Source: Minisyncoccota bacterium (lineage in GTDB: Bacteria > Patescibacteriota > Minisyncoccia > Phycocordibacterales > UBA9973). From it: 64,000 nt of DNA. The stretch's first letter is position 1. Each line of letters starts with the position of its first letter. The position numbers were made by a program, and so were the translations under genes. The DNA is taken from the NCBI GenBank assembly GCA_041664605.1, contig JBAYKO010000003.1, positions 6,858-70,857 on the forward strand, given 5' to 3'. A model generated the notes under the pieces. It ran no database searches, was not told where the DNA came from, and saw only the letters and a program-made list of their open reading frames with translations. Positions 1 to 21,913 of this stretch are shown one piece after another.

Positions 1-517
1 TACCACTAATACATCTTTGAATTTGTAAAAATCCTAATTTTGAATTAAGAAAAGTTAGTAAAAATAATTTATCTTCGGCTTTTATTTCTTTATTTGTAAA
101 TTTTATACCAATATTATTTTCACTAATATTACACAAATGCCAATCTTCAGGCACAGAAGAAACAATACCAATTGTATTCCCAACCTTAGATAACACTAGA
201 TCAAAAGGTTTAAGTTGAGATTGTTTTAATCTGTTATTATCATCTTCCGAAATATAAGTTAAATTTTCATCGTTAATAAAAAAATCTTCCAAATCACTTA
301 TTCTTAAGAATGGAACACCGGTTTCTAAATATGCCTCACTTTTAAGAGAAGAGCCAAATGGTCCACTAACAATTTTACAGCCAAATTCTTCTAATGTACT
401 ATGTTGTTCGTTTTTTATACCTTGAAGTAACTTAAGATATTCAGGTTGATAGTATTCAGGATCTAATCGGTAAGCTCCTTCAATTTCTGATTTTTTGATT
501 ATGGAATAAGTGGTCAT
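1..517 (-). CDS. hsdS: RM specificity subunit (HsdS / BcgI-B-like), N-terminal part; continues beyond left edge
   Basis: Minus-strand ATG at 517 overlaps the stop of the upstream ORF (ATGA). Translation reads MTTYSIIKKSEIEGAYRLDPEYYQPEY..IVSGPFGSSLKSEAYLETGVPFLRISD..LSKVGNTIG, a canonical HsdS target-recognition-domain start. The ORF track omits it because the stop lies outside the window. Confidence 0.8.
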   Translation of the reverse strand, partial: MTTYSIIKKSEIEGAYRLDPEYYQPEYLKLLQGIKNEQHSTLEEFGCKIVSGPFGSSLKSEAYLETGVPFLRISDLEDFFINDENLTYISEDDNNRLKQSQLKPFDLVLSKVGNTIGIVSSVPEDWHLCNISENNIGIKFTNKEIKAEDKLFLLTFLNSKLGFLQIQRCISG

Positions 518-870
518 ATATAATCATTACCGCGATTATTTCTATTGTTTTCATATTGAGACGTTAGGTGTGCAGATTCAGATTTAGTAATAGTACTAAT
601 ATACACTCCAAACTTAACACGACTAACAGTAGAACTTTTAATTTCTTTGTTAATTTCTCCACCACCTTCAACAAATTGAAGCACTCGAATTCCTGCTTTG
701 CCTCCAGTTTTTGTGGTATCTTCAGCACTAACTGCAATATCAAATTCAACTGTTTGGTTACTATCTTTATGAGATAATAAATGCATATCACGACTAGATT
801 CTTTTCGCGTTTCTTCAACAGCATCAACTACATCTTTTATTACACTTTTCACAAATTCTTTTAATTCCAT
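514..870 (-). CDS. hypothetical 118-aa protein lying between the RM A and S subunits
   Basis: ORF is tightly packed in the operon; its stop overlaps the hsdS start. No motif recognised. Confidence 0.4.
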   Translation of the reverse strand: MELKEFVKSVIKDVVDAVEETRKESSRDMHLLSHKDSNQTVEFDIAVSAEDTTKTGGKAGIRVLQFVEGGGEINKEIKSSTVSRVKFGVYISTITKSESAHLTSQYENNRNNRGNDYI

Positions 871-871
871 A

Positions 872-1363
872 TTATTTATTTAGTCCTAGTTTTAAAATTA
901 AAAATGATCCAAACAATAAGACCACTAATGGAAAAATAATGTATTTAACCCACCATATTTGGTACCAAGCTAGTTTGAAATTAGTATCAATGTTTTTTTG
1001 AAAACTATTTCCTAATGCTTTGGTATTTTCTCCCTCATCTTTTATTCCAATATCAAGATTTTCAAAAGTATTATTAATAAATTTATTATTTTTACCTTGA
1101 TTCAGTATCCCAATTGTTTTTTTATTTTCTATCTTATCTGTTTCAATTTTGTTAATTATTTTTCCACCATTAAAAGCATTCATTGTATTTCCTATCTGCG
1201 TTAAATTCTGTGTTGCGCTATGTTTAATAATTCCACCATCGACATTTTGTTTTGTATTTTGCATAAAAATTTTATCTCCATTAGTAATAATTGAATCCCC
1301 TTTTCTAGGATTCATCTCTATACCTTTATCGCCTATTGAAAAAATTGGTTTTTCTTCTTCCAT
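872..1363 (-). CDS. hypothetical 163-aa N/K/G-rich protein with a C-terminal TM anchor
   Basis: C-terminal hydrophobic helix WYQIWWVKYIIFPLVVLLFGSFLIL. Sits 3 nt after the MTase-nuclease gene. Confidence 0.4.
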   Translation of the reverse strand: MEEEKPIFSIGDKGIEMNPRKGDSIITNGDKIFMQNTKQNVDGGIIKHSATQNLTQIGNTMNAFNGGKIINKIETDKIENKKTIGILNQGKNNKFINNTFENLDIGIKDEGENTKALGNSFQKNIDTNFKLAWYQIWWVKYIIFPLVVLLFGSFLILKLGLNK

Positions 1364-1366
1364 ATT

Positions 1367-3316
1367 TTAAAATTTAATTTTTTCTTTACTAATAAATTTC
1401 ACAAATTCTTCCGCGATATCGTCCAAATCGTGGTCAATTATTTTCTTGCCTTTTAAGTCATACATAACATTCCCATCTTTGTCTTTCCTGTAAATATAAT
1501 CCCCCGAATTATCTTTCCCGCCCTTTTTCGAAACTGCCATAAATATCGGATAATCTTCTAGTGGTTTTTCATTTTCTTCCCATTTTTGTAAAAACAAAAC
1601 GCTAGTTTTAACTCCAGTATGCGGTTTAAAAGTATTTCCATGAAGCCCAACCACTGACAAAATTCGTGCTTTATCAAAAAGAAATCTGCGAACATATTCG
1701 GCATTTGTATTGTTAAAAATTCCTTGAGGTAAAACTATTGCCATGCGTCCGCCCGGTTTTAGGAAACTCAAATTTCTTTCAATAAATAAAATATCACGAG
1801 TTACTTTGTTTTGATGTTTATTGGTTTTGTGAAAATCTTTGTCCCATTTAAAACCTAAATCATATTTGTTTAAAAGTGTGCCTTTTATTTCTCCGGCAAA
1901 AGGCGGATTGGTAAGAACGATATCAAAATTGAAATCATTCATTTTTTCTTGATTTCTTCTGTTTTCTTCGCCATCTTTTGGATGAGCTAAAAATTGCCTG
2001 AATCTATTTCTTGCATCTTCATTCCAAACTTCTGAATCTAAGGAGTTGGCGTAAGTGACATTGGTTTTTCCATCGCCAGCGATCAACATCATAGCTTTAC
2101 CGATTTTTACAGAACGAGGATCAAAATCTATACCAAAAAGATGTTTTTCGGCATATTCTTTTTGTTTCATTTTATATTCATTACCATATTTTTTCTCATT
2201 TATTTCATTTTCCCAAACATACTGCATCGCATGAAGTAAAAATCCGCAACTGCCTGAAGCGGTGTCAATAATCATATCTTTAGGACTTGGAGCAAGCATC
2301 TTTACTGCCATATCAATAACTGGTCTCGGAGTAAAATATTGTCCTTTTTGCCCTTTTGACTCTTGAACAATAAGATATTCAAAGGCTTCGTCTATAATCT
2401 GTAAATTTGAACCAAAAAGACGATATTTTTGCAAAAGAGAAACTGCTGGAATAATTACATTTTCTGGAATTTCTATTTCTTCATTTGGCTTAAAAACATC
2501 TCTCCATTCTTTTCTGGCTTCTTCAAAAAGACGTGAGATATTATTTAGATTTTCTTTATTTGTTTCCCCTGCTATTACTCGAAAACGTCTGTTTTCATTT
2601 CTTGGAGTTTCTAGTTCGTCATACAATTTCGCATAAATAAGTTTAAAAATTTCTTCAAAAGAATTCACCCCACTATTTGCCAGAACAACTTCTTCTAAGT
2701 CAGAAATAAGCTGTTTTAAATCAACAACTGTTTCTAAGTCATTATAAGTAAGTTTTTTAGAACGAACATCATCAACAGTTTCATTAAATTTTGGAATATC
2801 CGGTAAATCTTCAAAAAGATTCGGGTCTGTACGTAAAATATTATTTTGAATTTTTCCATCGGTCAAAACTAAAATCGGAGCACCTGTGGCATTAGCATAA
2901 CTTTTTAATTGACCAAGTCCATCTTTCACATCTGGCTTTTTGACTTCAACAATTAAGTAAGGAGTTTGCATATCTTCTCGGTAAATAACAATATCAGCTC
3001 TTTTAGCACTGATCTCACGACCAAATTGAACGTGAACTTCTACATCCATTCTATTTAAAGGATATTTGTAATGGTTTTTTAATTTGTAAATCATAAGCTG
3101 GCGGACTATTTCTTCTGGCTTACTTAGATTTTTTTCTTCATTAAAAATTAAAATATCTTTGTCTCTTTTTAAACATTTAACATAAAACTTACCTTTTTCT
3201 TTTTCAAAAATGTCTAGCACTTCATTTATATCTACATCATGAAAAACAGATAGACCAAAAATTGCATCTTGATTTTTAAAAACTTTATTTATTATTTTGT
3301 TAGTTGTTTCTTTCAT
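1367..3316 (-). CDS. restriction-modification fusion protein: N-terminal PD-(D/E)xK nuclease (HsdR-N-like) + gamma-class N6-adenine DNA methyltransferase (BcgI-A-like architecture)
   Basis: N-terminal motif ADIVIY..PYLIVEVKKPD (D..EVK). C-terminal half has the NPPF catalytic motif (TNPPFAGE) and AdoMet-binding region (IIDTASGSCGFL). Length of 649 aa is close to BcgIA. Confidence 0.75.
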   Translation of the reverse strand: MKETTNKIINKVFKNQDAIFGLSVFHDVDINEVLDIFEKEKGKFYVKCLKRDKDILIFNEEKNLSKPEEIVRQLMIYKLKNHYKYPLNRMDVEVHVQFGREISAKRADIVIYREDMQTPYLIVEVKKPDVKDGLGQLKSYANATGAPILVLTDGKIQNNILRTDPNLFEDLPDIPKFNETVDDVRSKKLTYNDLETVVDLKQLISDLEEVVLANSGVNSFEEIFKLIYAKLYDELETPRNENRRFRVIAGETNKENLNNISRLFEEARKEWRDVFKPNEEIEIPENVIIPAVSLLQKYRLFGSNLQIIDEAFEYLIVQESKGQKGQYFTPRPVIDMAVKMLAPSPKDMIIDTASGSCGFLLHAMQYVWENEINEKKYGNEYKMKQKEYAEKHLFGIDFDPRSVKIGKAMMLIAGDGKTNVTYANSLDSEVWNEDARNRFRQFLAHPKDGEENRRNQEKMNDFNFDIVLTNPPFAGEIKGTLLNKYDLGFKWDKDFHKTNKHQNKVTRDILFIERNLSFLKPGGRMAIVLPQGIFNNTNAEYVRRFLFDKARILSVVGLHGNTFKPHTGVKTSVLFLQKWEENEKPLEDYPIFMAVSKKGGKDNSGDYIYRKDKDGNVMYDLKGKKIIDHDLDDIAEEFVKFISKEKIKF

Positions 3317-3952
3317 TTAATTTATTGTGCTTAAATTTAATATAACCTTTCCTTCGAAAACTATTTCTTCGGGAATTATTTTAATAATGTCATAGTTTGG
3401 GTTTTCCGGCTTTAAAAAAATTTTTGAACCTTCGACCATAAATCTTTTAACAGTTGTGCCGTCAGAATTCCTAGCCACAACAATATCTCCATTTTTAAAC
3501 GATTTACTTTTTTGAATTAAAAGTTTATCGCCATCATTTATGTTGGCATTAATCATTGAATCTCCATGAACTTGAACAATAAAAACATCTTCTGCTCTTT
3601 TTATTTTTTCTTCTGGAATAATTCCAGTTGGAACTTCCATCCATTTAAATTCAACATCTTGAAATGATTCTGTAAAAGGACCAGCCGAAGAAATCCCAAC
3701 CATTGGAAACATTTGTTTGCCTAAAATTTTAAAACCAAGTGGAGTTATTTTAATACTTCTAGCTGAACCCTCGCTTCTTTTGAGAGTTTGTGATTTTTCT
3801 AATTTTCCTAAAAGATCAATAATTGATTGATTGGAAGCAACTTTCAAATTTTCTCTCATTTCTTCAAAACTAGGTGGAAAGCCCGTGTTTTTAATAAAAT
3901 CATAAATAATTTGGAGAAGTTCTTTTTGCCTTGTGGTTATAGATAATTTCAT
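3317..3952 (-). CDS. lexA: LexA-family repressor (wHTH + S24 peptidase)
   Basis: N-terminal LexA DNA-binding fold (TRQKELLQIIYDFIKNTGFPPSFEEM..LEKSQTLKR). AG cleavage site (SSAGPF). Ser in GDSM and Lys in VKRF form the dyad. Stop abuts the downstream RM gene start (3316/3317). Confidence 0.8.
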   Translation of the reverse strand: MKLSITTRQKELLQIIYDFIKNTGFPPSFEEMRENLKVASNQSIIDLLGKLEKSQTLKRSEGSARSIKITPLGFKILGKQMFPMVGISSAGPFTESFQDVEFKWMEVPTGIIPEEKIKRAEDVFIVQVHGDSMINANINDGDKLLIQKSKSFKNGDIVVARNSDGTTVKRFMVEGSKIFLKPENPNYDIIKIIPEEIVFEGKVILNLSTIN

Positions 3953-3960
3953 ACATTATC

Positions 3961-3998
3961 ATTATACCCGACCATATAGTCAGTTTGCAAACAAAACT
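3961..3998 (-). promoter_or_regulatory. putative lexA promoter (-10 TATAAT, -35 TTGCAA) with a 10-bp perfect palindrome GTTTGCAAAC overlapping the -35
   Basis: Minus-strand reading gives ..ttGTTTGCAAACtgactatatggtcgggTATAATgataatgtATG. The palindrome sits at 3983-3992. Confidence 0.4.
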
Positions 3999-4064
3999 GT
4001 GGAAAACCCAATAATTGTGTGTATCACAAGTTACTAAACTAAATAGCTTTTTGGTAAGTAGTCT

Positions 4065-4090
4065 AAAAACCACCCTTAAGGGTGGTTTTT
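4065..4090. terminator. bidirectional rho-independent terminator hairpin (AAAAACCACCC-ttaa-GGGTGGTTTTT)
   Basis: 11-bp stem with A/T runs on both sides. Lies between lexA upstream region and the 3' end of the SWIB gene. Confidence 0.6.
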
Positions 4091-4113
4091 AGACTAAATC
4101 TATGTTTTTAAAT

Positions 4114-4377
4114 TTATGAAAGATGTTTTGAAACAAGTTTTGTCATTTCAAACATATCTACTACTGACTTACCACCAAAAACTTTTTTTAAGTTTTCGTC
4201 AGCAACTATATTTCTCTTATTTTTAGGGTCTTGAAGATTATGCTTCTTGATATATACCCAAAGAGCCTTGACCACCTCGGAACGAGGCATTGGACCCTTA
4301 CCCACAACTGCTGATAAATCAGCACTAATCGTTAAAGGCTTCATAAAACCAGAGTTTGCTTTTTTTGTTGTTACCAT
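4114..4377 (-). CDS. SWIB/MDM2 domain protein
   Basis: 87 aa; LTISADLSAVVGKGPMPRSEVVKALWVYIKKHNLQDPKNKRNI matches the SWIB fold signature. Confidence 0.75.
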   Translation of the reverse strand: MVTTKKANSGFMKPLTISADLSAVVGKGPMPRSEVVKALWVYIKKHNLQDPKNKRNIVADENLKKVFGGKSVVDMFEMTKLVSKHLS

Positions 4378-4515
4378 AAAATAAAATTAGTTTCTAGTAA
4401 CTAGGTTCTCCCGCCTTTGGACGGGACAGGTAGTTTCTAGTGAAAAGAAACTTTTATAATAATATTAATAATTTATAATTACTATTATACTACAAAAACA
4501 AAGTTATATACAGAA

Positions 4516-4543
4516 GGGGGGCGGAGGCAACGCCTCCGCCCCC
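4516..4543. repeat. GC-rich hairpin GGGGGGCGGAGGC-aac-GCCTCCGCCCCC + T-run; left copy of an inverted repeat flanking fic
   Basis: 13-bp G/C stem in an AT-rich context. Exact reverse complement (including the ttctgt flank) of the copy at 5808-5842. Confidence 0.7.
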
Positions 4544-4585
4544 ATTTTTTTATTTAAGCATTTGGGTTACTTTTGTGGGCATAAA

Positions 4586-5650
4586 TTATATTTTCTTATA
4601 CCTTGTAGCACGGCCTTGCCCAATACGCTTAATTTTGTTTAAGCGGAGTAATTTTTCTATTGATTGATTGACAGTAGGACGACCAACGTCAGTATATTTT
4701 ACAATATCCCCAGCACTAGCATCTTCCACACTTCCGATATAATTCCAAACTTCCAATTGTTTCTGAGATAAAATATCCTCTAAATGTTCAGTCTCAAGAA
4801 GTGCAATAGCTCTTATACTTTGTTCCTCAACAACACTCAAAAAGAATAGAAGCCATGCTTCGATTGATTGATTTTTTGTTTTAAATGTCCCCTGACTTTG
4901 ACGTAAGGTAGTGTAATATTCTTCTTTTCGTTTTTCAATAATTTGTTCATGCGAAACATACGGCATATATAAATAGCCAGCACGAAGTAAGAGAATATTT
5001 GTCAAAATACGAGAAAGACGACCATTTCCATCTTTAAATGGATGAATTTTTAAAAATTCTACTAAAAAATTACCAATGACAAGTAAGGGGTGTATTTCTT
5101 TCTTTTCTAATTCAGAATATGTCCATTCAACAATTTCAGTCATTTCTTTTTGAGTAAGCCAAGCTTGTGTAGTTTCAAAAATAATCTGCCCTATTTCTCC
5201 ATTTTCTTTTTGAATCGCAACAGCATTTTCTTCTTGTTTGTATTTACCAGAATGTAATTTGTCTTTTTCTGAATACTTCAACATTGCTTTATGTAAGTGT
5301 TGTATTACACCTTCACGAAGTGGTAACGTTTCAAAACTATCAAAAATATTTGATAGTAATTCAAGATACCCTTTCACTTCTTGTACATCTCTATCTCGAA
5401 ATTTTGTTGTTGAGAGACCACGCATAACTCTTTCTACTTCTTCATCCGACAATTGTGAGCCTTCTATACGAGTAGAAGCCCCTGAGGAAGTGATAAGTAC
5501 TGAATGATGAAGAGTTGTTAGAATAGACGGGGTAAGTTTACTTCCAAAACTCCATTTACCTTTAATCTCATCTATACGAGCAATAAACTCCCAAACTTTT
5601 CCGTCGAGTTTTATTAAACGCTTATTAAATTGGTTGTTATTTTTATCCAT
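4586..5650 (-). CDS. fic: Fic-family (FIC domain) protein, class II with N-terminal inhibitory motif and C-terminal wHTH
   Basis: Canonical Fic motif HPFKDGNGRLSR. Inhibitory helix motif STRIEG ((S/T)xxxE(G/N)) near the N-terminus. Confidence 0.85.
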   Translation of the reverse strand: MDKNNNQFNKRLIKLDGKVWEFIARIDEIKGKWSFGSKLTPSILTTLHHSVLITSSGASTRIEGSQLSDEEVERVMRGLSTTKFRDRDVQEVKGYLELLSNIFDSFETLPLREGVIQHLHKAMLKYSEKDKLHSGKYKQEENAVAIQKENGEIGQIIFETTQAWLTQKEMTEIVEWTYSELEKKEIHPLLVIGNFLVEFLKIHPFKDGNGRLSRILTNILLLRAGYLYMPYVSHEQIIEKRKEEYYTTLRQSQGTFKTKNQSIEAWLLFFLSVVEEQSIRAIALLETEHLEDILSQKQLEVWNYIGSVEDASAGDIVKYTDVGRPTVNQSIEKLLRLNKIKRIGQGRATRYKKI

Positions 5651-5978: not shown

Positions 5979-6038
5979 TTCCACAAACTAAAAAATCCCC
6001 AGCAGTGGGGATTTTTTTACGTTTGTGGACCTTATTGG
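5979..6038. repeat. ~60-nt structured repeat copy B (CCACAA..hairpin AAAATCCCCagcagtGGGGATTTT..TTGTGG)
   Basis: Direct repeat of 5840-5900. Confidence 0.55.
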
Positions 6039-6244
6039 ATTAAACTGGAACCAAGTAGTTGCCGAATTGTATCAATGGCACCTAGTAATGGAGGCAGTTA
6101 AGCCATATAAAGCACTTTAAAAGGTTTGATAATAGTAACTATCGCTATATGGTTCCCTTATCGTGTCACTGGGAGCTTACATTGATCGTTACCGGCTATT
6201 ATAGACCTTATATGCAGAATGAGCTAGTAATGTACAATACTCCG

Positions 6245-6403
6245 CTAAGCATAATTTATTTTATTCTGGAATTTCCAGACTGCATTCATATAAGTAACAA
6301 GTGCCGTAAGCTCGTCTCGGGCACGGGCTTTGTCTACTGGATGGCCGAATTCTTCTAGATATACAGCCATATATTTTTCTATCTGTTCTTCACTTATTTG
6401 CAT
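6245..6403 (-). CDS. possible small ORF (52 aa), hypothetical
   Basis: ATG at 6403, stop at 6245. Sits at the start of the GC-elevated island. Below the ORF-track length cutoff, so weakly supported. Confidence 0.25.
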   Translation of the reverse strand: MQISEEQIEKYMAVYLEEFGHPVDKARARDELTALVTYMNAVWKFQNKINYA

Positions 6404-7112
6404 ATTCTATAAAAGACGGGAGTGTTTTATATTTTCCAAAGTTTTCACCAGTATTTGCATTAGTACCGGAAAGATACATACTAGTAATTGTATTAAAAAC
6501 TTCAAAAACATCATCAGAATCTTCGAAGTTTCCGCCAAAATTTGCACCAGGTTGCATATCGGTAACAAACATACATGCATCCCAAGGATTTTTACCTAAA
6601 AGTCCAGCAGCTGCCCAAGAATAAATTAATTCTGATAACATCTCATACCAGATATAATAACGCTCTATTTTTTCAAGATCAGAATCGCTTCCACTAATAG
6701 CACTTTCTATCATTTTAGAGTAATTTGAAAAGCGTATGTCTGTATTGTATTTATTTGTTGTTGATCTAATAGGGATGTTTTCAAGTAATAAAGCGTCTAA
6801 ATCAGGGAGTATTTTTTCTACTTGTATTTTTCTCTTTATCTCAACTAACCAATTGAACGCTATATTATAATCAGAAAATCCACTACTATCATATTTTATC
6901 CCTAATTTAAAATCCTCTTTACCTTGTAAAGTAAAAGAATTCAAGATAAATGGCCAGGATGCTTGTAGCGTATATAAATCATAAAACATATTTCTGACTA
7001 CCTTGCTGGAATATTCTTCTCTAGAATACTTTTTACGCCACTCCAAAAGAACGCTGTATAGTTTAGATAAAATTTCATCTTGCAATAATAAGGTTTCATT
7101 TTTATTTTCCAT
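6390..7112 (-). CDS. hypothetical protein (240 aa)
   Basis: Long ORF with no recognised motif; lies inside the higher-GC island. Confidence 0.5.
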   Translation of the reverse strand: MENKNETLLLQDEILSKLYSVLLEWRKKYSREEYSSKVVRNMFYDLYTLQASWPFILNSFTLQGKEDFKLGIKYDSSGFSDYNIAFNWLVEIKRKIQVEKILPDLDALLLENIPIRSTTNKYNTDIRFSNYSKMIESAISGSDSDLEKIERYYIWYEMLSELIYSWAAAGLLGKNPWDACMFVTDMQPGANFGGNFEDSDDVFEVFNTITSMYLSGTNANTGENFGKYKTLPSFIEYANK

Positions 7113-7120
7113 ATAAGATA

Positions 7121-8023
7121 TTATTTATTACTTCTTACAAGCAGGGCTCGAATACCTACTAATGTTCGTTCCGGTATAATAAAGGAACCGAGAAAGCTAC
7201 TTTTATCCTGATTGTCGTCTATATATCCTCCTCCTGAGACCATCCTCCCGCTCAGTCCTTGCCGGCTGATCATTCTTTCTACTATCTTTTCCGCCCCTTG
7301 ATTTGGAGTAGCAACGCCAACATAGTTCTGCGTTGAAAATCCTATCAATTTGTAAGCTGACAGGTTTTTCAAAAAAGTGTTGTATTCTATTTTGAATTTC
7401 CTCACATCATCACTTTCGCTAGCATTGCCAAATCCGATAAGATATGAGGGGTCATACATTACCCATCGGTACTTGGACGAGTTTTCTGCTAGAGCACAGA
7501 TATTGCCTGTATTTTCATATAGAGTGTTCGTTTTAGTGGTAAAGTCTGTTCTTAAATCATTAAGCACTTTCTTTTCTCCTAAGCCATTTAGTGTTTTAGC
7601 TGTGGCACAAAATGTCTTAAAAGACACTAATGTAGGGCTGGCTAGGAATGTGTCTATGGTTGCGATTGATTGACTATAGTCAGCTTTAGGGAATCCACCA
7701 GGTTGTCTACCAATAGAAGTCTCTTGGGATAGAGAGATACTAAAATCAACTAGTGGATTAAAAACAGGAGAAGGATTACCAGTGACAGAAGCAGGTTTAT
7801 TTTGACCCTCTGATTTTTCCTTTAATTCTATAACCTGTTTTTTCAGATCTTTGATTTCTTTATCGTTCGTAGCTGTAGGGACAGGAGTAGAGATTTGAAC
7901 TGTCGGTGTCTCTACCGCCTTTTTATGAAACCACGAAAATGGGTTCCACCATGAGGCTAGGGCAACAGATGGGATGATTAGAAAACTCAAAACAATTATT
8001 ATTGGAAGTTGTATTTTTTTCAT
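7121..8023 (-). CDS. hypothetical secreted protein (signal peptide)
   Basis: N-terminus MKKIQLPIIIVLSFLIIPSVALASWW is typical of a Sec signal peptide. Confidence 0.55.
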   Translation of the reverse strand: MKKIQLPIIIVLSFLIIPSVALASWWNPFSWFHKKAVETPTVQISTPVPTATNDKEIKDLKKQVIELKEKSEGQNKPASVTGNPSPVFNPLVDFSISLSQETSIGRQPGGFPKADYSQSIATIDTFLASPTLVSFKTFCATAKTLNGLGEKKVLNDLRTDFTTKTNTLYENTGNICALAENSSKYRWVMYDPSYLIGFGNASESDDVRKFKIEYNTFLKNLSAYKLIGFSTQNYVGVATPNQGAEKIVERMISRQGLSGRMVSGGGYIDDNQDKSSFLGSFIIPERTLVGIRALLVRSNK

Positions 8024-8262
8024 GGTGATATCTTCTGTTGATCAGTGATAAGTCCCATGAGTAGGCAACAAAAAACCCGCAACATAGGTAGAGACCGAAA
8101 TCTCTCGTGCAGTTTCCCACACGGCGTATAAGGCGACCCTATATTACGGGGTTGTTTATGCCTTATACGACTCACTTTCACCATGTCGGCACAAGACCGA
8201 TTTAGGCTACTGCTTTTATTAACTTGTATGATTATATTACCAAATAAGGACCAAAATAAAAA

Positions 8263-11677: not shown

Positions 11678-14266
11678 TTATGTTATTAAATTTTTAACTT
11701 CTTGAATATCTTTTTTTAATTTTTCAATATTATCCGGCATGGCATGCTGTATCATTTCGTTTGATTGATCATGAGCATCTATATACCGACTAAATTCCTC
11801 GTGGAGTTCCTTTGCTTTTTCAAGCTTTGATTTGTTAAGGGTTGCTCTAGGTATATTACGCATCTGAATTTGCTCGGACCATCTTGTAACAACTTTCCCA
11901 AATATCTTTTCTTCCACGGCCTTTTCTATAGCTTTTCTTAAGTTACTGTAGGCGGTTCTAATACCATCTCTTTTACTCTCACCGCTTAAACTTGAAAGAG
12001 AAGTGAACATCCCATCAACCTTTTGAACTTGTGCATTAAAGTTAATAGATCCAGCATAATCATTTTCAGTTACTACACCAGCATCGATATCATTTTTCTC
12101 GACTTTATGAAAGGCTGCTTTTATACTATCTACTTCATGATTTTCCTTTTCAACTTGTTCGTGTAAATAGTTAGCAAACATCAAATCATGAGTGAAAACA
12201 ATGACTTGTCGTGATTCAGATTCCTTGACAATTCTTTTGGCGATTTTTTCTTTTCTGTCATGGTCAAAACTGGTAGCAGGATCGTCAAATATGACAGGGG
12301 TCTTTTCACCTTGCATTGCCAATTCAGCAAAAAAATCAGAGAGTGCAACTGCCTTTTGTTCTCCTTCGCTTAAAAACTGATTAATATGGTCCATCCCGCT
12401 TAAGCTTTTCTCTCTCATTTGCGAACCATATTCACCTCGAAAATTCAAGTTTACATTTGGTGCATCGAGACTTGCGACTTCAGTGTTGAATTGCCGTTTA
12501 AATGAATCTGACACTAATTCCTTCCATGCTTTCATCCCGAGCTCTGTTATAGGTCTGGTATTAAATTTAACCGCAAGAGAGCTTGCTTTTGCTATCCATT
12601 GATTAATTCCGATGTATTTTTCTACATGTCTTTTATATTTTGAAAATTTCTGAATATCTTTCATTTCAACCTCTGCCAGATTCAACTCTACTGAACGACG
12701 GTTAAAATTTCGCTGTGCTTCATTAAGCTGTTTTATATCGTTTTCAATTTTCGCTTTCACTAATCCAGTACTGGTTATAAGACCACTGATATTCAACGGT
12801 TTCAGTTTACCTGCTTTTTTCGTGTTCAAGCATCCAATAACCTGCTGGATTAAAGCATCCGCATTATCCATGGCGTCAAATGAAGAATGAGCTAGTTTTT
12901 TCGTAAGTATTTTTACGAAGTCGTTTTTTTTATATGGAAAATTATTACTAAATGAAATATCTTCCAAATTTGAAAGTGCTTCATCAAGCTCATTCTCTAT
13001 GTCCTCGAAATCATTTGACTCCTCTTCTTCGAAGAGCTTCCTGTAGAGTTGTATGAGTTTGGTCGCTGTCTTGCTAAGCTTTTGCTGACAATAGATACAA
13101 TTATCAGCCTCCTCGGGATAATTTTCATGATAGGCAATATCAGTATACGATTCTCCTGCTTCGATGAATTTTTCCCATTCATCCGATGCCATTTCCGGAA
13201 TTTTATAATCATCCAGTGTTTTTCCTTTCTTTTCCGTAAATTTCTTCTTGCTTATGTTGAATTTTTTTATCAATTGTAAATAAGTGCGAACACTCGCTGG
13301 CGAAGTCTCTGTTTTAATTTCTTCCAATTTTTCCTGCAGGGCAGTCACTTTCTGTAATCTTGTTTGTAGATTTTCAAATTGCAGGTCCATGTTTTGTAAG
13401 CTCTTGGACTCTTTGATGTTCGCTAACAGTGCTTCCTTGGCAGACTGACCCCACTGAGGAAGTTTATTTAAGTCTGCAACTTTTGTTGAAGGACCAATAC
13501 TATTAATAAATTTTCCTATTGTAGTTCCACTATTGAAAATACCTTCAAGTGGCGGTTTGTCGTCTTCTGCTTTCTGTATATGGTTTGTCATTCGCTGCTG
13601 TAAACCAGTCAATGCACGTGAAGCAGATTGGAATAATTCAAAACCATATGGTTGATAGGAAAAATCGAGTCCTTCGGTTAAGTAGATTGGAATACATTCT
13701 CCATCAAAAATACTCATTCGATTGAATGGGGTTAATGTATTATGGCCATCCCACATAACTGTTCGATCCGTACCATTATTAAACACAATCTTTACCTTAC
13801 ACTCATTCTTTTTTTTTGAGTTATTTATATTTTGCCAAATATCTTCCTGCGTTCTCGATGCACTGATTCTCTTCAAAATACGGACAAAGCCTGATTTACC
13901 ACTTCCATTTTTACCATAAATTACAGTGAGTCGTGAGTGGAATGATAGTGTTGCCCCTTTGACTAGTGCATTCACGCCATCCTCATGTACTAAATTCTTA
14001 AGTTCAAATCCATTGTTAGCAGTCAAAGGTCTAGCAATTACCGGAGTAGGGGTTTTAATGTCGGTACTTTTTTCTTTGGCATCACTCAGTCCGTGTGTAA
14101 TCAAAAAATCTTCGTATATTGTGTCTAAAAACGTATTGTCAGGAACGGCACGGATGGAAATGATCCGATCCAGTAACGGACTCATCCATTGTTCACGATC
14201 TTGAGCCCCAAATTCCTTTAGGTAGTCGTCAGCTTTAGTTTTTGGAATAGGAGTAACTTCTGACAT
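11678..14266 (-). CDS. large ABC-type ATPase with a coiled-coil insert and central CxxC zinc hook (RloC/Rad50-like), plus a ~160-aa C-terminal extension
   Basis: Walker A GKNGSGKSG (~aa 118). CIYC at ~aa 388, midway through the coiled coil. ABC signature LSEGEQ, Walker B VIFDDP and H-loop VIVFTHD at ~aa 640-700. C-terminal tail contains SRYIDAH (Rx4H). Confidence 0.8.
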   Translation of the reverse strand: MSEVTPIPKTKADDYLKEFGAQDREQWMSPLLDRIISIRAVPDNTFLDTIYEDFLITHGLSDAKEKSTDIKTPTPVIARPLTANNGFELKNLVHEDGVNALVKGATLSFHSRLTVIYGKNGSGKSGFVRILKRISASRTQEDIWQNINNSKKKNECKVKIVFNNGTDRTVMWDGHNTLTPFNRMSIFDGECIPIYLTEGLDFSYQPYGFELFQSASRALTGLQQRMTNHIQKAEDDKPPLEGIFNSGTTIGKFINSIGPSTKVADLNKLPQWGQSAKEALLANIKESKSLQNMDLQFENLQTRLQKVTALQEKLEEIKTETSPASVRTYLQLIKKFNISKKKFTEKKGKTLDDYKIPEMASDEWEKFIEAGESYTDIAYHENYPEEADNCIYCQQKLSKTATKLIQLYRKLFEEEESNDFEDIENELDEALSNLEDISFSNNFPYKKNDFVKILTKKLAHSSFDAMDNADALIQQVIGCLNTKKAGKLKPLNISGLITSTGLVKAKIENDIKQLNEAQRNFNRRSVELNLAEVEMKDIQKFSKYKRHVEKYIGINQWIAKASSLAVKFNTRPITELGMKAWKELVSDSFKRQFNTEVASLDAPNVNLNFRGEYGSQMREKSLSGMDHINQFLSEGEQKAVALSDFFAELAMQGEKTPVIFDDPATSFDHDRKEKIAKRIVKESESRQVIVFTHDLMFANYLHEQVEKENHEVDSIKAAFHKVEKNDIDAGVVTENDYAGSINFNAQVQKVDGMFTSLSSLSGESKRDGIRTAYSNLRKAIEKAVEEKIFGKVVTRWSEQIQMRNIPRATLNKSKLEKAKELHEEFSRYIDAHDQSNEMIQHAMPDNIEKLKKDIQEVKNLIT

Positions 14267-14356: not shown

Positions 14357-15436
14357 TTATTTTATAAACCTTACCTGTAGGTTTAATTTCATAAAGTACC
14401 GTCCACCTTCTTTGAATACACTTATTGGATATCGAGTTGTACTCGGTGTATCAAGCTTGGTGTTATTTATTAAATAATCCCTAAAATCTTCTATATTGTA
14501 TAAATAATAACAAAGCACATCACCGTCTTTTTTTACCAACAAAAAACCACCCAAACTAGTAAGTATCCCATTCCATTCTTTATTAGGCATCATCCCTAAA
14601 GCCATCACGCTTAAAAATTCTTTTATTTTATGAATTGGTTGAATATTTTGCTTGTCGGCTATTGGAAAATTTATTTCCAATAAATCAGAAAAACTAGTCG
14701 CACCTCTGGAATAGAAAGATAATAGAATTTTTGCTATGTGCAACGCCAAATTACTATCAATCAACGACATATTGTTTTTAAATTTCTCACTATCAACATT
14801 ATGCAAAACTATGTTATATCCACTACTTATCAAGAGACCGACATTATCCTTCACATTTTTAGCGTGTAGCTTTGGTAATTTAATTGGTACCTTCATTTTT
14901 TCATCGAGAATTTCAAAAGTGAAGCTTGTCGCCTTTGATGAGTTAAGAAGCGTTGACGGACTGCCCAGTTGTGACTTTATACTAAAACCAATTTCAGGAC
15001 TTGGTTTTTTCGTCTTTACATCAAAAACCACTAAGTCTAAGTCTTTTTTATCAGAGCTAGATGCTTTAATAATTTCCTTCTGCAAAATTTGCATCATTTC
15101 TGACCCAACTTCTAATGGAAAAGATCGACCCTCATTTTTGACTGAGAGATTATTGAACATTCTATTTAAAATTGACTCGATTTTTTTTACTTTTACAGAG
15201 GCTACTTTATTTTTTCCAGAAAAAATATCAACGACTTCTTGACCTATTTCATATGTAACTTTTTCCTTTCCTGCTTTTTCAGAAAAAATTATTTTTAGTA
15301 CCTTGTAAAATAAATCTTCTCTACGATTTTGATATTTGTCTGCAGCGTATGCACCACCATTTACCAATAGAAAAGCTAGTGCGTACAACTCACTCCACTC
15401 CCCAGTATTGCCAGTTGTCTGTTTTTGATTAATCAT
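14357..15436 (-). CDS. putative type II restriction endonuclease cognate to the upstream m5C-MTase
   Basis: Start overlaps the MTase stop by 8 nt. No catalytic motif recognised, so the call is positional. Confidence 0.45.
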   Translation of the reverse strand: MINQKQTTGNTGEWSELYALAFLLVNGGAYAADKYQNRREDLFYKVLKIIFSEKAGKEKVTYEIGQEVVDIFSGKNKVASVKVKKIESILNRMFNNLSVKNEGRSFPLEVGSEMMQILQKEIIKASSSDKKDLDLVVFDVKTKKPSPEIGFSIKSQLGSPSTLLNSSKATSFTFEILDEKMKVPIKLPKLHAKNVKDNVGLLISSGYNIVLHNVDSEKFKNNMSLIDSNLALHIAKILLSFYSRGATSFSDLLEINFPIADKQNIQPIHKIKEFLSVMALGMMPNKEWNGILTSLGGFLLVKKDGDVLCYYLYNIEDFRDYLINNTKLDTPSTTRYPISVFKEGGRYFMKLNLQVRFIK

Positions 15437-16328
15437 AATGATTTTCTAACGCCTCAATTATTTTTTTTGCATAATCCTGTATTGCATAAATTGCCACACT
15501 GTTGCCTAACTGCTTCATGGCCTGGCTTTCTGTAACAGGAAATATAAAATCTTCAGGAAAGCCCTGCATTTTTTTCCCTTCTTTTGAAGTAATTCTTTTT
15601 ACTTTTCCGTTCACCAAATAGCTGTCCCAATTTCGTCTGTCGGTAATATTGGACCCCTTACCACCAACTCTAAGAGTAAAACCAACTTCTTTATTTACCT
15701 TTGCTCCATCAAAGACATCGGACATGGTAAATTTTAAAGGTCTTTTTTGTGGAAATTCAAAAGGTATTTTTTTGTTTTTAAAACCAATCATAAACAAACG
15801 GGGGCGGTTCTGTGGCAGGCCGTGCTCCGATGCTTTTACAATATTAAAATGAAGAGAATATCCCAAATCTTTAGTCAAAACATTACTAATTACTTCAAAT
15901 GTTTTTCCATTATCGTGAGCAAGTAAACCCCTGACATTTTCCAAAAAGAATGCTTTTGGTTTTTTTACACGAATAATTTCTGCAATGTTATAAAACAAGG
16001 TCCCACGTGTATCATTAAAACCTTTCTTGAAACCAGCCTGACTAAATGGCTGACACGGAAAGCCTCCAGTTAAAATATCAAAATTGGGTATTTTTTTTGG
16101 ATCGATTTTTGTAATATCTCCAACAAAATTTCCACTAGAAAATAATTCGGGGTCAATTTTTTCAAAATTTGTCTGGTATGTATTTCTTGCATGAGAATCC
16201 CATTCTGACGAAAAAACGCACTTGGCACCAACATTATTAAAAGCTATATGAAAACCTCCAATTCCTGCGAATAGATCAATAAATGTAAATTTTTTCTTTT
16301 TCATTTTAATATTTGCCATATATAACAA
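15429..16328 (-). CDS. DNA (cytosine-5)-methyltransferase
   Basis: Motif I DLFAGIGGF, motif IV GFPCQPFS, motif VI FLENVRGL, motif VIII QNRPRLF, motif X GNSVAI. Confidence 0.9.
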   Translation of the reverse strand: MLYMANIKMKKKKFTFIDLFAGIGGFHIAFNNVGAKCVFSSEWDSHARNTYQTNFEKIDPELFSSGNFVGDITKIDPKKIPNFDILTGGFPCQPFSQAGFKKGFNDTRGTLFYNIAEIIRVKKPKAFFLENVRGLLAHDNGKTFEVISNVLTKDLGYSLHFNIVKASEHGLPQNRPRLFMIGFKNKKIPFEFPQKRPLKFTMSDVFDGAKVNKEVGFTLRVGGKGSNITDRRNWDSYLVNGKVKRITSKEGKKMQGFPEDFIFPVTESQAMKQLGNSVAIYAIQDYAKKIIEALENHYD

Positions 16329-20258: not shown

Positions 20259-21902
20259 ATGCAAAGCAATGTATTAACAGTAGTAAAAATTAAATTAAGT
20301 TGTATTATGAAAAATATGAAGACTGGAATTATATATACAAGAGTAAGTTCAGACGAACAGATCAAAGGTACCTCCCTCGGTGAACAGGAGGAATTTTGTC
20401 GTAAATATTGTGCCGAAAAGGATATAACCATAGTGCGTGAGGTATTCCGTGAAGAAGGAGCTTCTGCCAAGAGTACCGATCGGGCAGTGTTTTTGAGTGC
20501 TATTGAATACTGTCGAAAAAACAAGGTAGACTTTTTTGTCGTTTGGAAGTGTGATCGCTTTGCCAGAAATTCAACCGACCATTACGCAGTCAAAAGCACC
20601 TTATTAAAATACGGCACCCGGCTTGACTCTGTAACAGAGCAGATCGGAGACGATCCAACTGGTAAACTAATGGAGGGTATGATGGCTATTATTGGCGAAT
20701 TTGATAACGATATACGAAAACAGCGTTGCAGTGGCGGAATGCTTGGCAGACTGAAACAAGGAATATGGCCATGGAAACCACCTATTGGTTATATCTGTGA
20801 AAATAACAAAAAGCAGGACAGGAAGAAAGAACAGCCGGACCCGATTAACCCGGTTATATTTCCTATCATTCAGCGTGGCTTAAAAGAATTCGTGGCTGGA
20901 CAATACACCATGACGCAATTAGCAGAAGCATATAATCGCTATGGGCTTGTTGCTCCAAATGGTAAAAAAATAAACGCAAAATTAGTAGACAGATTGTTTA
21001 CACATCATCTGGCCTATTATGCTGGTATATTGAATAATCCATTTTTCCCCAAGAACGGCGAAGCTTCATATGAGGGTAAGCATACTCCCATGATCACCAA
21101 GGAAGAATACAGGGCGATCTTAATGATCCGAGCAGGTAAAAGGGTGCAGACAATGAAACGGAGTCGCCACAACCCAATATTTCCCCTCAAAGGTAGCGTA
21201 TTTTGCTCTAAATGCGACAAGAGGCTAACTGGAAGCTGTTCCCGTGGGAATGGCGGGGTTTATGCCTTCTACCACTGCTATAACGTCTCATGTGACCTCC
21301 GTGGCAAGACAGTCCAAAAGAAAATCATTGAAGACGCCTTTATTAAATTTCTGGAGTCTGTTACTCCTAATGAAAAGTTTTTAAAACTGTTCGAGGAGAT
21401 AGTCATACAGCACTGGACCAACAAAGGCCATGTATTCGAAGTACAGACTAATAAATATGCAAAAGAGATAGCCGAATTGAATCAAAAGAAAAAGAGGATC
21501 TATGAAATGAGAGAGGACGGCGAATACACCAAGGAACAATGCACAGATAGATTGAACGAAATAGAAGACAAAATAGTCGCATTGGATATTTCTTTAAACG
21601 AGGCAAAAATAGAGCAGTTTGATGTTGAAGCTACAGTGAAATATGCAGTAAGGACCATTACTGATTTACCAAAACTTTGGTTTGATCTTGCACCGGAATT
21701 ACGCCCACGGTTCCAAAAGATGGTATTTCCCGAGGGAGTTCTCTATTCCAAAGAAGAAAGTTTTCGAACCAACAAATTGGCTTATATCTACGAGCTAAAA
21801 AAGAAAAAAGGAGCTCAAAGAACTCCTTTTTTCAACATAGTGGACCCTAGCGGATTCGAACCGCTGACCTCCTCATTGCAAATGAGGCGCTCTACCAGCT
21901 AA
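20259..21902 (+). CDS. large serine recombinase (integrase)
   Basis: Resolvase catalytic region GIIYTRVSSDEQ. Recombinase domain and Cys-rich zinc-ribbon (CSKCDKR..CSRGNGGVYAFYHC). Spacing of the catalytic Ser suggests the true start is nearer 20307 (MKNMKTGIIY). The 3' end overlaps tRNA-Ala. Confidence 0.85.
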   Translation: MQSNVLTVVKIKLSCIMKNMKTGIIYTRVSSDEQIKGTSLGEQEEFCRKYCAEKDITIVREVFREEGASAKSTDRAVFLSAIEYCRKNKVDFFVVWKCDRFARNSTDHYAVKSTLLKYGTRLDSVTEQIGDDPTGKLMEGMMAIIGEFDNDIRKQRCSGGMLGRLKQGIWPWKPPIGYICENNKKQDRKKEQPDPINPVIFPIIQRGLKEFVAGQYTMTQLAEAYNRYGLVAPNGKKINAKLVDRLFTHHLAYYAGILNNPFFPKNGEASYEGKHTPMITKEEYRAILMIRAGKRVQTMKRSRHNPIFPLKGSVFCSKCDKRLTGSCSRGNGGVYAFYHCYNVSCDLRGKTVQKKIIEDAFIKFLESVTPNEKFLKLFEEIVIQHWTNKGHVFEVQTNKYAKEIAELNQKKKRIYEMREDGEYTKEQCTDRLNEIEDKIVALDISLNEAKIEQFDVEATVKYAVRTITDLPKLWFDLAPELRPRFQKMVFPEGVLYSKEESFRTNKLAYIYELKKKKGAQRTPFFNIVDPSGFEPLTSSLQMRRSTS

Positions 21903-21913
21903 GCTAAGGGCCC
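21841..21913 (-). tRNA. tRNA-Ala (anticodon UGC)
   Basis: Manual cloverleaf fold. Acceptor GGGCCCT/AGGGTCC with the Ala G3:U70 pair. Anticodon stem CCTCA/TGAGG with loop TTTGCAA. T-loop TTCGAAT. Length 73 nt with no encoded CCA. Confidence 0.9.

Follow-up and report, generated by a model that had tools for sequence, protein, structure and literature searches.

Organization of the Operon

The locus at the start of a 64,000-nucleotide stretch of a Minisyncoccota genome (contig JBAYKO010000003.1, positions 6,858 to 70,857 of the forward strand; this whole stretch is referred to as the window) raises the question of why a gene for a LexA-family repressor stands at the head of an operon for a restriction–modification (RM) enzyme. 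By public names, the organism is a member of Candidatus Paceibacterota (Patescibacteria). We consider it fairly probable, judging from sequence comparisons, that the locus is a self-contained defense unit: an autorepressed and damage-inducible operon of an RM enzyme and embedded cargo genes. The enzyme type, the embedding of cargo, and autorepressors encoded by the first open reading frame (ORF) of an operon are already known. No description of a self-cleaving LexA-family repressor whose gene is the conserved first cistron of such an operon was found in the searchable literature, outside whose reach lies a 2017 study of the SOS response in Patescibacteria. Among described SOS regulons, none is known to have lexA in one transcription unit with a gene for a restriction enzyme.

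The operon consists of five minus-strand ORFs. In the direction of transcription these are lexA (positions 3317–3952), encoding a 211-amino-acid repressor; the RM gene (1367–3316), encoding a 649-amino-acid fusion of a PD-ExK nuclease and a gamma-class N6-adenine methyltransferase; two small cargo genes, p163 (872–1363; 163 amino acids with a C-terminal transmembrane anchor) and p118 (514–870; 118 amino acids); and the 5′ part of an hsdS-like specificity gene (1–517), recognized by its translation and a PADLOC Specificity_I match and cut by the window start (172 of 460 codons lie inside). All five ORFs and their junctions, as drawn in the original prediction for this DNA, are present at the coordinates and with the spacing described there. 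The gaps between successive genes are 0, 3, 1, and −4 nt: the lexA stop codon TAA abuts the ATG of the RM gene (3317/3316), and the p118 stop codon and the hsdS start codon overlap as ATGA. A terminator scan found no convincing terminator inside the operon, including the lexA-RM junction. The prediction that lexA belongs to the same operon as the RM gene is supported by this tight packing, by the lack of a terminator between the two genes, and by a linkage that is conserved and co-diverging among relatives (see below). Translational coupling of the two genes, which had also been claimed, is reduced here to a suggestion drawn solely from the abutting codons.

The complete specificity gene was recovered from locus L001 (contig Ga0376277_0000758, JGI 3300037810, 156 kb), which was found by an exact-protein match. 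In L001 the gene occupies positions 12800–14182 and encodes a 460-amino-acid HsdS with a Pfam Methylase_S match and two target recognition domains (TRDs). It is followed by a 69-amino-acid DUF3892-like ORF and an ABC (ATP-binding cassette) transporter.

A Type IIB-like Restriction Enzyme

The 649-amino-acid protein contains an HSDR_N_2 domain (residues 67–175) and an N6_Mtase domain (residues 307–601) according to Pfam, with an NPPF motif at residues 470–473, and it has no Pfam helicase domain. Its closest solved relative is RM.BsaXI (8w0p), to which it aligns over the full length (E = 1e-24). When the first 200 residues of 32 family members were used as a profile, the sole significant match was the BsaXI nuclease domain (E = 1.4e-7), and an HsdR nuclease domain was matched weakly. 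The catalytic cluster of BsaXI is formed by E73, D90, E105, and K107, which are conserved across type IIB enzymes (PMC11997821). These residues align with E93, D108, E124, and K126 of the window protein, all four of which are invariant in both family alignments (A1 and A4, with 17 and 32 sequences) that extend to ~40% identity with the window protein. Like BcgI and BsaXI, the system couples an N-terminal PD-ExK nuclease and a gamma-class N6-adenine methyltransferase in one chain, has a separate type I-like S subunit that contains two TRDs, and lacks an ATPase or translocase. The original prediction had assigned a BcgI-like type IIB architecture on the basis of the fusion protein and the separate HsdS-like subunit, and this assignment is upheld, with BsaXI as the closest solved relative; at the level of sequence, the protein and its separate S subunit are a type IIB-like RM enzyme of the BcgI/BsaXI architecture.

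The alternative is a type I HsdM, its N-terminal domain decayed, that either works with a remote HsdR or forms an orphan M plus S pair for methylation only. The best PADLOC model (PDLC03034, 616 bits over the full length) is labelled “Type I methyltransferase”, the public annotation is that of a type I M protein, and the S subunit is type I-like. Type I RM systems, however, have an HsdR with a nuclease and a superfamily 2 (SF2) translocase that is usually encoded next to them, and no hsdR is present within 10 kb on either side of the operon in the gene tables of loci L001 and L002; the sole nearby gene with a ResIII/DEAD domain encodes a 446-amino-acid protein 7 kb downstream. Furthermore, relatives on plasmids and viral contigs manage without hsdR: a Klebsiella plasmid carries the RM and S genes only, Picosynechococcus pAQ6 carries a 1179-amino-acid single-chain RMS fusion, and viral contigs carry plain RM and S pairs without LexA (39–48% identity). 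A degenerate HsdM with an hsdR just outside the window had been named beforehand as the competing outcome; since the nuclease motif is intact, with the four BsaXI catalytic residues present and invariant, and no hsdR lies nearby, this is not what was found, and we regard the type I alternative as highly unlikely.

Homology to BsaXI and BcgI predicts that the RM and HsdS-like proteins would assemble as (RM)2S, and that the enzyme would methylate a bipartite site in the host DNA, whereas DNA lacking this methylation would be cut with no need for an ATP-driven translocase. Type IIB enzymes cleave both DNA strands on each side of a bipartite site and require SAM and Mg2+ only. Two differences set the window system apart. 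The RM protein is much shorter than that of BsaXI (649 versus 916 amino acids), with no knob or paddle region aligned, and the operon begins with a LexA-family gene and has cargo placed between its RM and S genes. The RM family is highly conserved and has more than 8000 homologs, which are publicly labelled as type I M subunits despite the full type IIB nuclease motif. In two of the viral-contig relatives (L109, positions 7698–8227, and L110, positions 7710–8152) the match to the RM protein is broken by ~450–530 bp near query residues 584–588; the methyltransferase may be interrupted there by an insertion or by something akin to an intein.

Conserved Linkage of LexA and the RM Gene

The first protein of the operon matches PF01726 (LexA_DNA_bind, E = 1.3e-11) and PF00717 (Peptidase_S24, E = 1.6e-24), scores above the cutoff of the LexA equivalog model TIGR00498 in NCBIfam (135.5 bits vs. 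110.95), and aligns over its full length with the solved LexA structures 3k2z and 8s7g. The cleavage site is A90-G91 and the catalytic residues are Ser132 and Lys169. Across 23 aligned sequences (22 module-linked LexA proteins and, as an outgroup, the second LexA-like protein of locus L008) the Gly, Ser, and Lys are conserved in 23/23 and the cleavage-site Ala in 20/23. The winged helix and S24 domains, the Ala-Gly site, and the Ser/Lys dyad are all shared with canonical LexA proteins of the SOS response. An alternative to the self-contained defense unit is that the protein is the ordinary SOS master regulator of the host and the RM, cargo, and S genes merely lie downstream of it as part of a wider SOS regulon. 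The two readings overlap and differ in the ownership of LexA, which belongs either to the host or to the module, and both the equivalog score and the full-length alignment with solved LexA proteins count in favor of the host.

The evidence from related loci points the other way in most respects. About 90 related loci were gathered from genome and metagenome collections, and in 23 non-redundant loci among them the gene immediately preceding the RM gene encodes a LexA homolog. A neighbor-joining tree of the RM proteins divides the LexA-containing loci into three groups (76–94%, 56%, and ~50% identity to the window protein) and the tree of the LexA proteins returns the same three groups, so that LexA co-diverges with its RM protein. 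The flanking genes differ between LexA-RM loci, even in L015 where the RM protein is 94% identical; because the flanks are not shared, the conserved unit is LexA-RM-(cargo)-S. RM proteins at 75–80% identity are found in metagenome-assembled genomes (MAGs) labelled Nomurabacteria, Moranbacteria, and Paceibacterota, which suggests a transfer of the LexA-RM unit. Finally, the sister clade to that of the window (65–69% identity to the window RM protein) is without LexA, and in L020, as in the identically arranged P0098 contig, a 69-amino-acid XRE helix-turn-helix (HTH) protein of the C-protein type (HTH_3) occupies the LexA slot. Co-divergence, variable flanks, the apparent transfer as a unit, and sister clades without LexA or with another regulator in its place all argue against a regulator owned by the host. 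One locus supports the host: a Moranbacteria locus, which was checked separately, also has LexA upstream of the RM gene, but its neighbors include ribosomal and other core genes, and 21 contigs carry it. Adjacency of lexA is thus found in 23 non-redundant loci and the Moranbacteria locus without being universal, as the sister clade lacks LexA, and on these comparisons we judge that the link of LexA with the RM gene is not accidental.

A second lexA gene is absent from the 64-kb window and, among the collected loci, a divergent LexA-like gene is found in L008 alone. The region 6034–7975 of that locus contains this second gene (220 amino acids, S24 E = 1.2e-17), 2 kb downstream of the hsdS gene of the module, next to a 347-amino-acid ORF that is RhuM-like by eye. 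The lack of another lexA in the window is what would be expected of the host's own regulator, whereas the presence of a second LexA-like gene close to the module in L008 is not. S24 repressors may recur in the defense islands of the Patescibacteria, and DNA-damage-responsive regulators of defense are familiar from CapH and CapP of the cyclic oligonucleotide-based antiphage signaling system (CBASS). In two further loci (L031, positions 2021–2434, and L035, positions 820–1233) lexA and the RM gene are separated by an inserted 137-amino-acid ORF that belongs to no known family, indicating that the LexA-RM junction can also accept cargo.

A Putative Operator in the lexA Promoter

The best minus-strand match to a sigma-70-like promoter within positions 1–4600 of the window is TTGCAA-18-TATAAT (positions 3961–3990, 10 of 12 positions matching), directly upstream of lexA, and its −35 and −10 elements are conserved in an alignment of 21 promoters. 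In the window, 8 nt separate the end of the −10 element from the ATG of lexA, and in nearly all related loci this distance is 6–9 nt. This spacing suggests that the lexA mRNA is leaderless, which it probably is, as is the lambda cI mRNA transcribed from PRM.

Between the −35 and −10 elements lies a 12-bp near-palindrome, GACTATATGGTC (positions 3970–3981, minus strand), which is regarded as a putative LexA operator based on the conservation of its position and sequence. Relative to the start codon, a palindrome of this type is located at −24 to −38 in 22 related loci (−112 in L039); its consensus is GACTAAATAGTC, with the variants GAACATATGGTC (e.g., in L006) and GTACAAACAGTC, and the surrounding promoter bases have diverged. 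The variant in Moranbacteria ends in GTTCA. The operator family resembles the Gram-positive SOS box, GAAC-N4-GTTC, and the arrangement of lexA at its own promoter with such a palindromic box, from which autoregulation is predicted, is shared with canonical LexA. The resemblance, seen in the variant of L006 and in the GTTC half-site of Moranbacteria, is a further point for LexA as the SOS regulator of the host. The distribution of the operator is not: a position weight matrix (PWM) has its sole strong intergenic match in the 64-kb window at positions 3970–3981 (17.7 bits on one strand and 19.0 bits on the other), and no further convincing sites upstream of genes were found with this narrow PWM in ~958 kb of related loci, a body of sequence that contained no repair genes. 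Two intragenic matches in the window, at positions 21567 (in a recombinase ORF) and 59508 (in rpoC), were dismissed as chance-level.

A second conserved element of the promoter resembles a DnaA box. In the window it reads TTTTCCACA (positions 3998–4006, minus strand; consensus TTATNCACA), and it lies just upstream of the −35 element or abuts it. As a TT(A/T)TCCACA-like motif located −45 to −62 relative to the lexA start, it is present in 17 of 22 related promoters; loci with the element are L004, L015, L016, L024, L026, and L028–L040. The 64-kb window contains four copies compared with 2.2 expected. Co-regulation of the operon by DnaA or some other factor is conceivable. A further conserved element, (GGCTC)AAATAAAG-N4-CTTGAC, was observed ~10–25 bp upstream of the −35 element in L006–L008, with a partial TTTAAAG in L115; elements of the AAATAAAG type are present in part of the group that includes the locus of the window.

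A Variable Cargo Slot between the RM and S Genes

The ORFs between the RM and S genes are non-homologous between related loci and their content differs in nearly every locus. A Pfam analysis of 46 such ORFs identified NYN (four ORFs), DUF3800 (three), DUF4145 (two), AAA_13 (PrrC-like), RhuM, ORF6N, Fic, AAA_15, PemK, Trypsin_2, and other families; an AAA_13/SMC ATPase and a RhuM protein are further examples of what the gap can hold. Cargo is present in 18 out of 19 loci with LexA and in 12 out of 40 without it (Fisher p = 2.6e-6, uncorrected for phylogeny). The two small proteins of the window had been put forward as unprecedented in BcgI loci, and here the original prediction does not stand: while its type IIB reading and its linkage of lexA to the enzyme are retained, the small genes occupy a variable cargo slot and are not a special feature of the system. 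Accessory defense genes embedded in type I RM loci have been described before (bioRxiv 10.1101/2024.01.29.577857; PMC12255303). The variable slot of defense-type genes inside an RM operon is a feature shared with the embedding in type I RM, BREX (bacteriophage exclusion), and DISARM (defense island system associated with restriction–modification) loci, which involves PrrC, RloC, RhuM, and DarTG (bioRxiv 10.1101/2024.01.29.577857). The window differs from these in that the slot is hosted by a two-subunit type IIB-like enzyme and that the presence of cargo goes together with LexA. The RM-S gap of this family can be used as a cargo hotspot for the discovery of defense genes through “guilt by embedding”.

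The p163 protein matches no family in Pfam, NCBIfam, or PADLOC. Five homologs were found, all with a hydrophobic C-terminal stretch, and one of them is encoded in an island with ResIII, HEPN_AbiU2, and SNase genes. The p118 protein matches Pfam Trypco2 (PF19631) below the cutoff (E = 0.017, 15.8 bits vs. 24.2 required), but its family of ~130 proteins, mostly from Patescibacteria, includes several members at 56–65% identity that carry PF19631 and one that is named “trypco2 family protein”. An AlphaFold2 model of p118 (predicted local distance difference test [pLDDT] score 69.8) consists of an N-terminal helix, four strands, and a C-terminal helix, and a Foldseek search of the model against the PDB returned nothing at E ≤ 0.001. 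Matches to uL24, the only ones in a profile search of PDB sequences, were rejected as spurious. A p118 homolog occupies the same slot in L040, beside an NYN protein, although the RM protein of that locus is just 50% identical; elsewhere in Patescibacteria the family is mostly encoded by stand-alone genes in varied contexts.

Trypco1/2 proteins, since renamed Pepco, are pre-assembled beta-barrel pore formers of ~117 amino acids that a partner protease activates by removal of the C-terminal tail (bioRxiv 10.1101/2025.11.14.688446). The p118 protein has in common with Pepco its size (118 vs. 117 amino acids), the occurrence of PF19631 in its family, and a predicted N-terminal amphipathic helix followed by strands and a C-terminal tail; it differs in its sub-threshold Pfam score and in having no adjacent protease gene, as no gene for a trypsin- or caspase-like protease is present in the operon. 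We describe p118 as a putative, divergent trypco2/Pepco-like pore former. The S24 peptidase of LexA might process the Pepco-like protein, whose usual protease partner is missing, as well, but this idea is very improbable; inspection of the p118 tail by eye revealed no LexA-type Ala-Gly site, and the single A-G of the protein sits in the middle of a predicted strand region.

The order of the five genes also resembles that of the methylation-associated defense system (MADS), with a regulator, an M gene, two further genes, and an S gene, so the locus could be a truncated or variant MADS. Matches to NCBIfam MADS2 (319 bits) and MADS5 (43.7 bits) and to PADLOC mad2 (127 bits) are in line with this, but the MADS2 and MADS5 scores are far below the cutoffs of 720 and 400, and neither of the genes in the middle is matched by a MAD3 or MAD4 model. 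MAD6, MAD7, and MAD8 are mandatory in the MADS model (bioRxiv 10.1101/2023.03.30.534895). They are absent here, where the 69-amino-acid ORF and the ABC transporter follow hsdS. Because of this absence and the low MAD2 and MAD5 scores, membership in MADS was rejected as exceedingly improbable.

Proposed Regulation and Ownership of LexA

In the proposed mechanism, one promoter would drive lexA, the RM gene, the two cargo genes, and the S gene. LexA would bind the 12-bp palindrome in the promoter spacer and repress its own operon, so that levels of the enzyme and of the potentially toxic cargo would stay low and homeostatic, a service that other RM systems receive from C-proteins and RptR. Upon DNA damage, phage replication, or breaks from self-restriction, which are possible triggers, activated RecA would cause LexA to cleave itself and the whole operon would be induced; RecA-triggered self-cleavage is expected because the Ala-Gly site and the Ser/Lys dyad are conserved. 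The cargo, a tail-anchored membrane protein and a Pepco-like protein, would probably act as a second layer of the abortive-infection type. Since nuclease and methylase reside in one polypeptide, control cannot consist of differential timing, unlike that exerted by C-proteins; plausible functions of LexA are dosage control and a damage-induced boost. A role as controller fits the XRE HTH protein in the same slot of the sister clade and the conserved operator in the spacer, and a role as damage sensor fits the conserved cleavage site and dyad; both roles had been proposed in the original prediction.

A number of observations weigh against this mechanism as the property of a self-contained unit. 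The LexA protein scores as an equivalog in a window that has no second lexA. The GC content of the operon (29–31%) equals the host baseline, as it would for a resident host gene, and recent transfer is therefore not evident here. The search for a wider regulon was made with a PWM that missed the Moranbacteria variant of the operator and is thus too narrow for the purpose. Canonical LexA controls DNA-repair genes such as recA and uvrA, and its cleavage is stimulated by RecA; neither recA nor other SOS genes were found in the window or in the sequence of the collected loci. The correlation between LexA and cargo is confounded by shared ancestry. On the side of the enzyme, an AlphaFold2 model of the 649-amino-acid protein, based on a 17-sequence alignment of close homologs, reached a mean pLDDT of 50.7 and was too poor for a fold search. 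LexA as the regular SOS regulator of the host is the main alternative to the self-contained unit, and we hold it to be unlikely.

A stronger version of the self-contained unit can also be considered, in which the module carries LexA as a damage sensor of its own, distinct from the SOS regulator of the host, and the locus is a two-tier inducible immune operon that combines a type IIB enzyme with membrane-active effectors. Restriction would then operate at a basal level until phage replication or failed restriction gives rise to RecA filaments, whereupon LexA cleavage would release a surge of enzyme and abortive-infection cargo. We hold this version only tentatively and think it possible rather than probable. 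If true, it would represent a widespread regulatory design in the CRISPR-poor Patescibacteria; CRISPR (clustered regularly interspaced short palindromic repeats) is reportedly rare in this group, with RM as its presumed main defense.

Comparison with Known Regulators of Restriction

A parallel to the proposed regulation is RptR, a 9-kDa all-helical autorepressor whose gene is the first ORF in a type I RM island with embedded DarTG2 in enteropathogenic Escherichia coli (PMC12255303). Features shared with that island (RptR, HsdM, HsdS, DarTG2, HsdR; PMC12255303) are a small regulator as the first ORF, a palindrome that overlaps the core promoter, an embedded defense module, and an association of regulator and RM genes that is conserved across genomes. 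The differences are that RptR lacks a sensor domain whereas the LexA of the operon has a self-cleaving S24 peptidase, and hence an in-built damage switch; that the RM enzyme is type IIB-like instead of type I; and that the embedding is between M and S and not between S and R.

C-proteins, like the role predicted for LexA, are DNA-binding proteins encoded upstream in the same unit that autoregulate and set the level of the enzyme. They are XRE HTH proteins of ~80 amino acids that time R against M, whereas the regulator of the window is a 211-amino-acid member of the LexA family and R and M form one chain. The regulation of RM systems and defense islands is far less understood than their mechanisms, and the known controllers (C-proteins, RptR, and BrxR/CapW) carry no direct link to RecA and LexA. 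If the proposed mechanism is true, the classic DNA-damage switch is wired directly, and in a form that can be tested, both to restriction and to the abortive-infection genes embedded with it.

Genomic Neighborhood of the Operon

A terminator-like, GC-containing hairpin of 17 pairs (positions 4059–4096; minus-strand core aaaaaccacccttaagggtggttttt), listed on the plus strand in the hairpin scan, delimits the operon on its upstream side. It follows a gene (4114–4377) for an 87-amino-acid stand-alone SWIB/MDM2-domain protein (Pfam E = 1.9e-31), directly upstream of the operon. This domain is uncommon in bacteria outside the Chlamydiae. A search of six loci against Rfam gave no matches, and no tRNA gene was found beside the module in a scan of 20 loci with LexA (L032 contains two unrelated tRNA genes).

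Further defense genes are located near the operon: a SoFic-like Fic protein (4586–5650; PADLOC SoFic, 147 bits), an 862-amino-acid PDC-S06 ATPase (406 bits) with a 341-amino-acid partner whose family is unassigned (11678–14266), and a pair consisting of a type II restriction endonuclease and a C5 methyltransferase (14357–16328). A large serine recombinase ORF (20259–21913) overlaps with its 3′ end a tRNA-Ala gene (21840–21913), and the GC content is 34–42% at ~6–22 kb compared with ~30% elsewhere in the window. Based on these features, the region at ~6–22 kb looks like an integrated island that adjoins the lexA-RM operon, with the operon itself outside.

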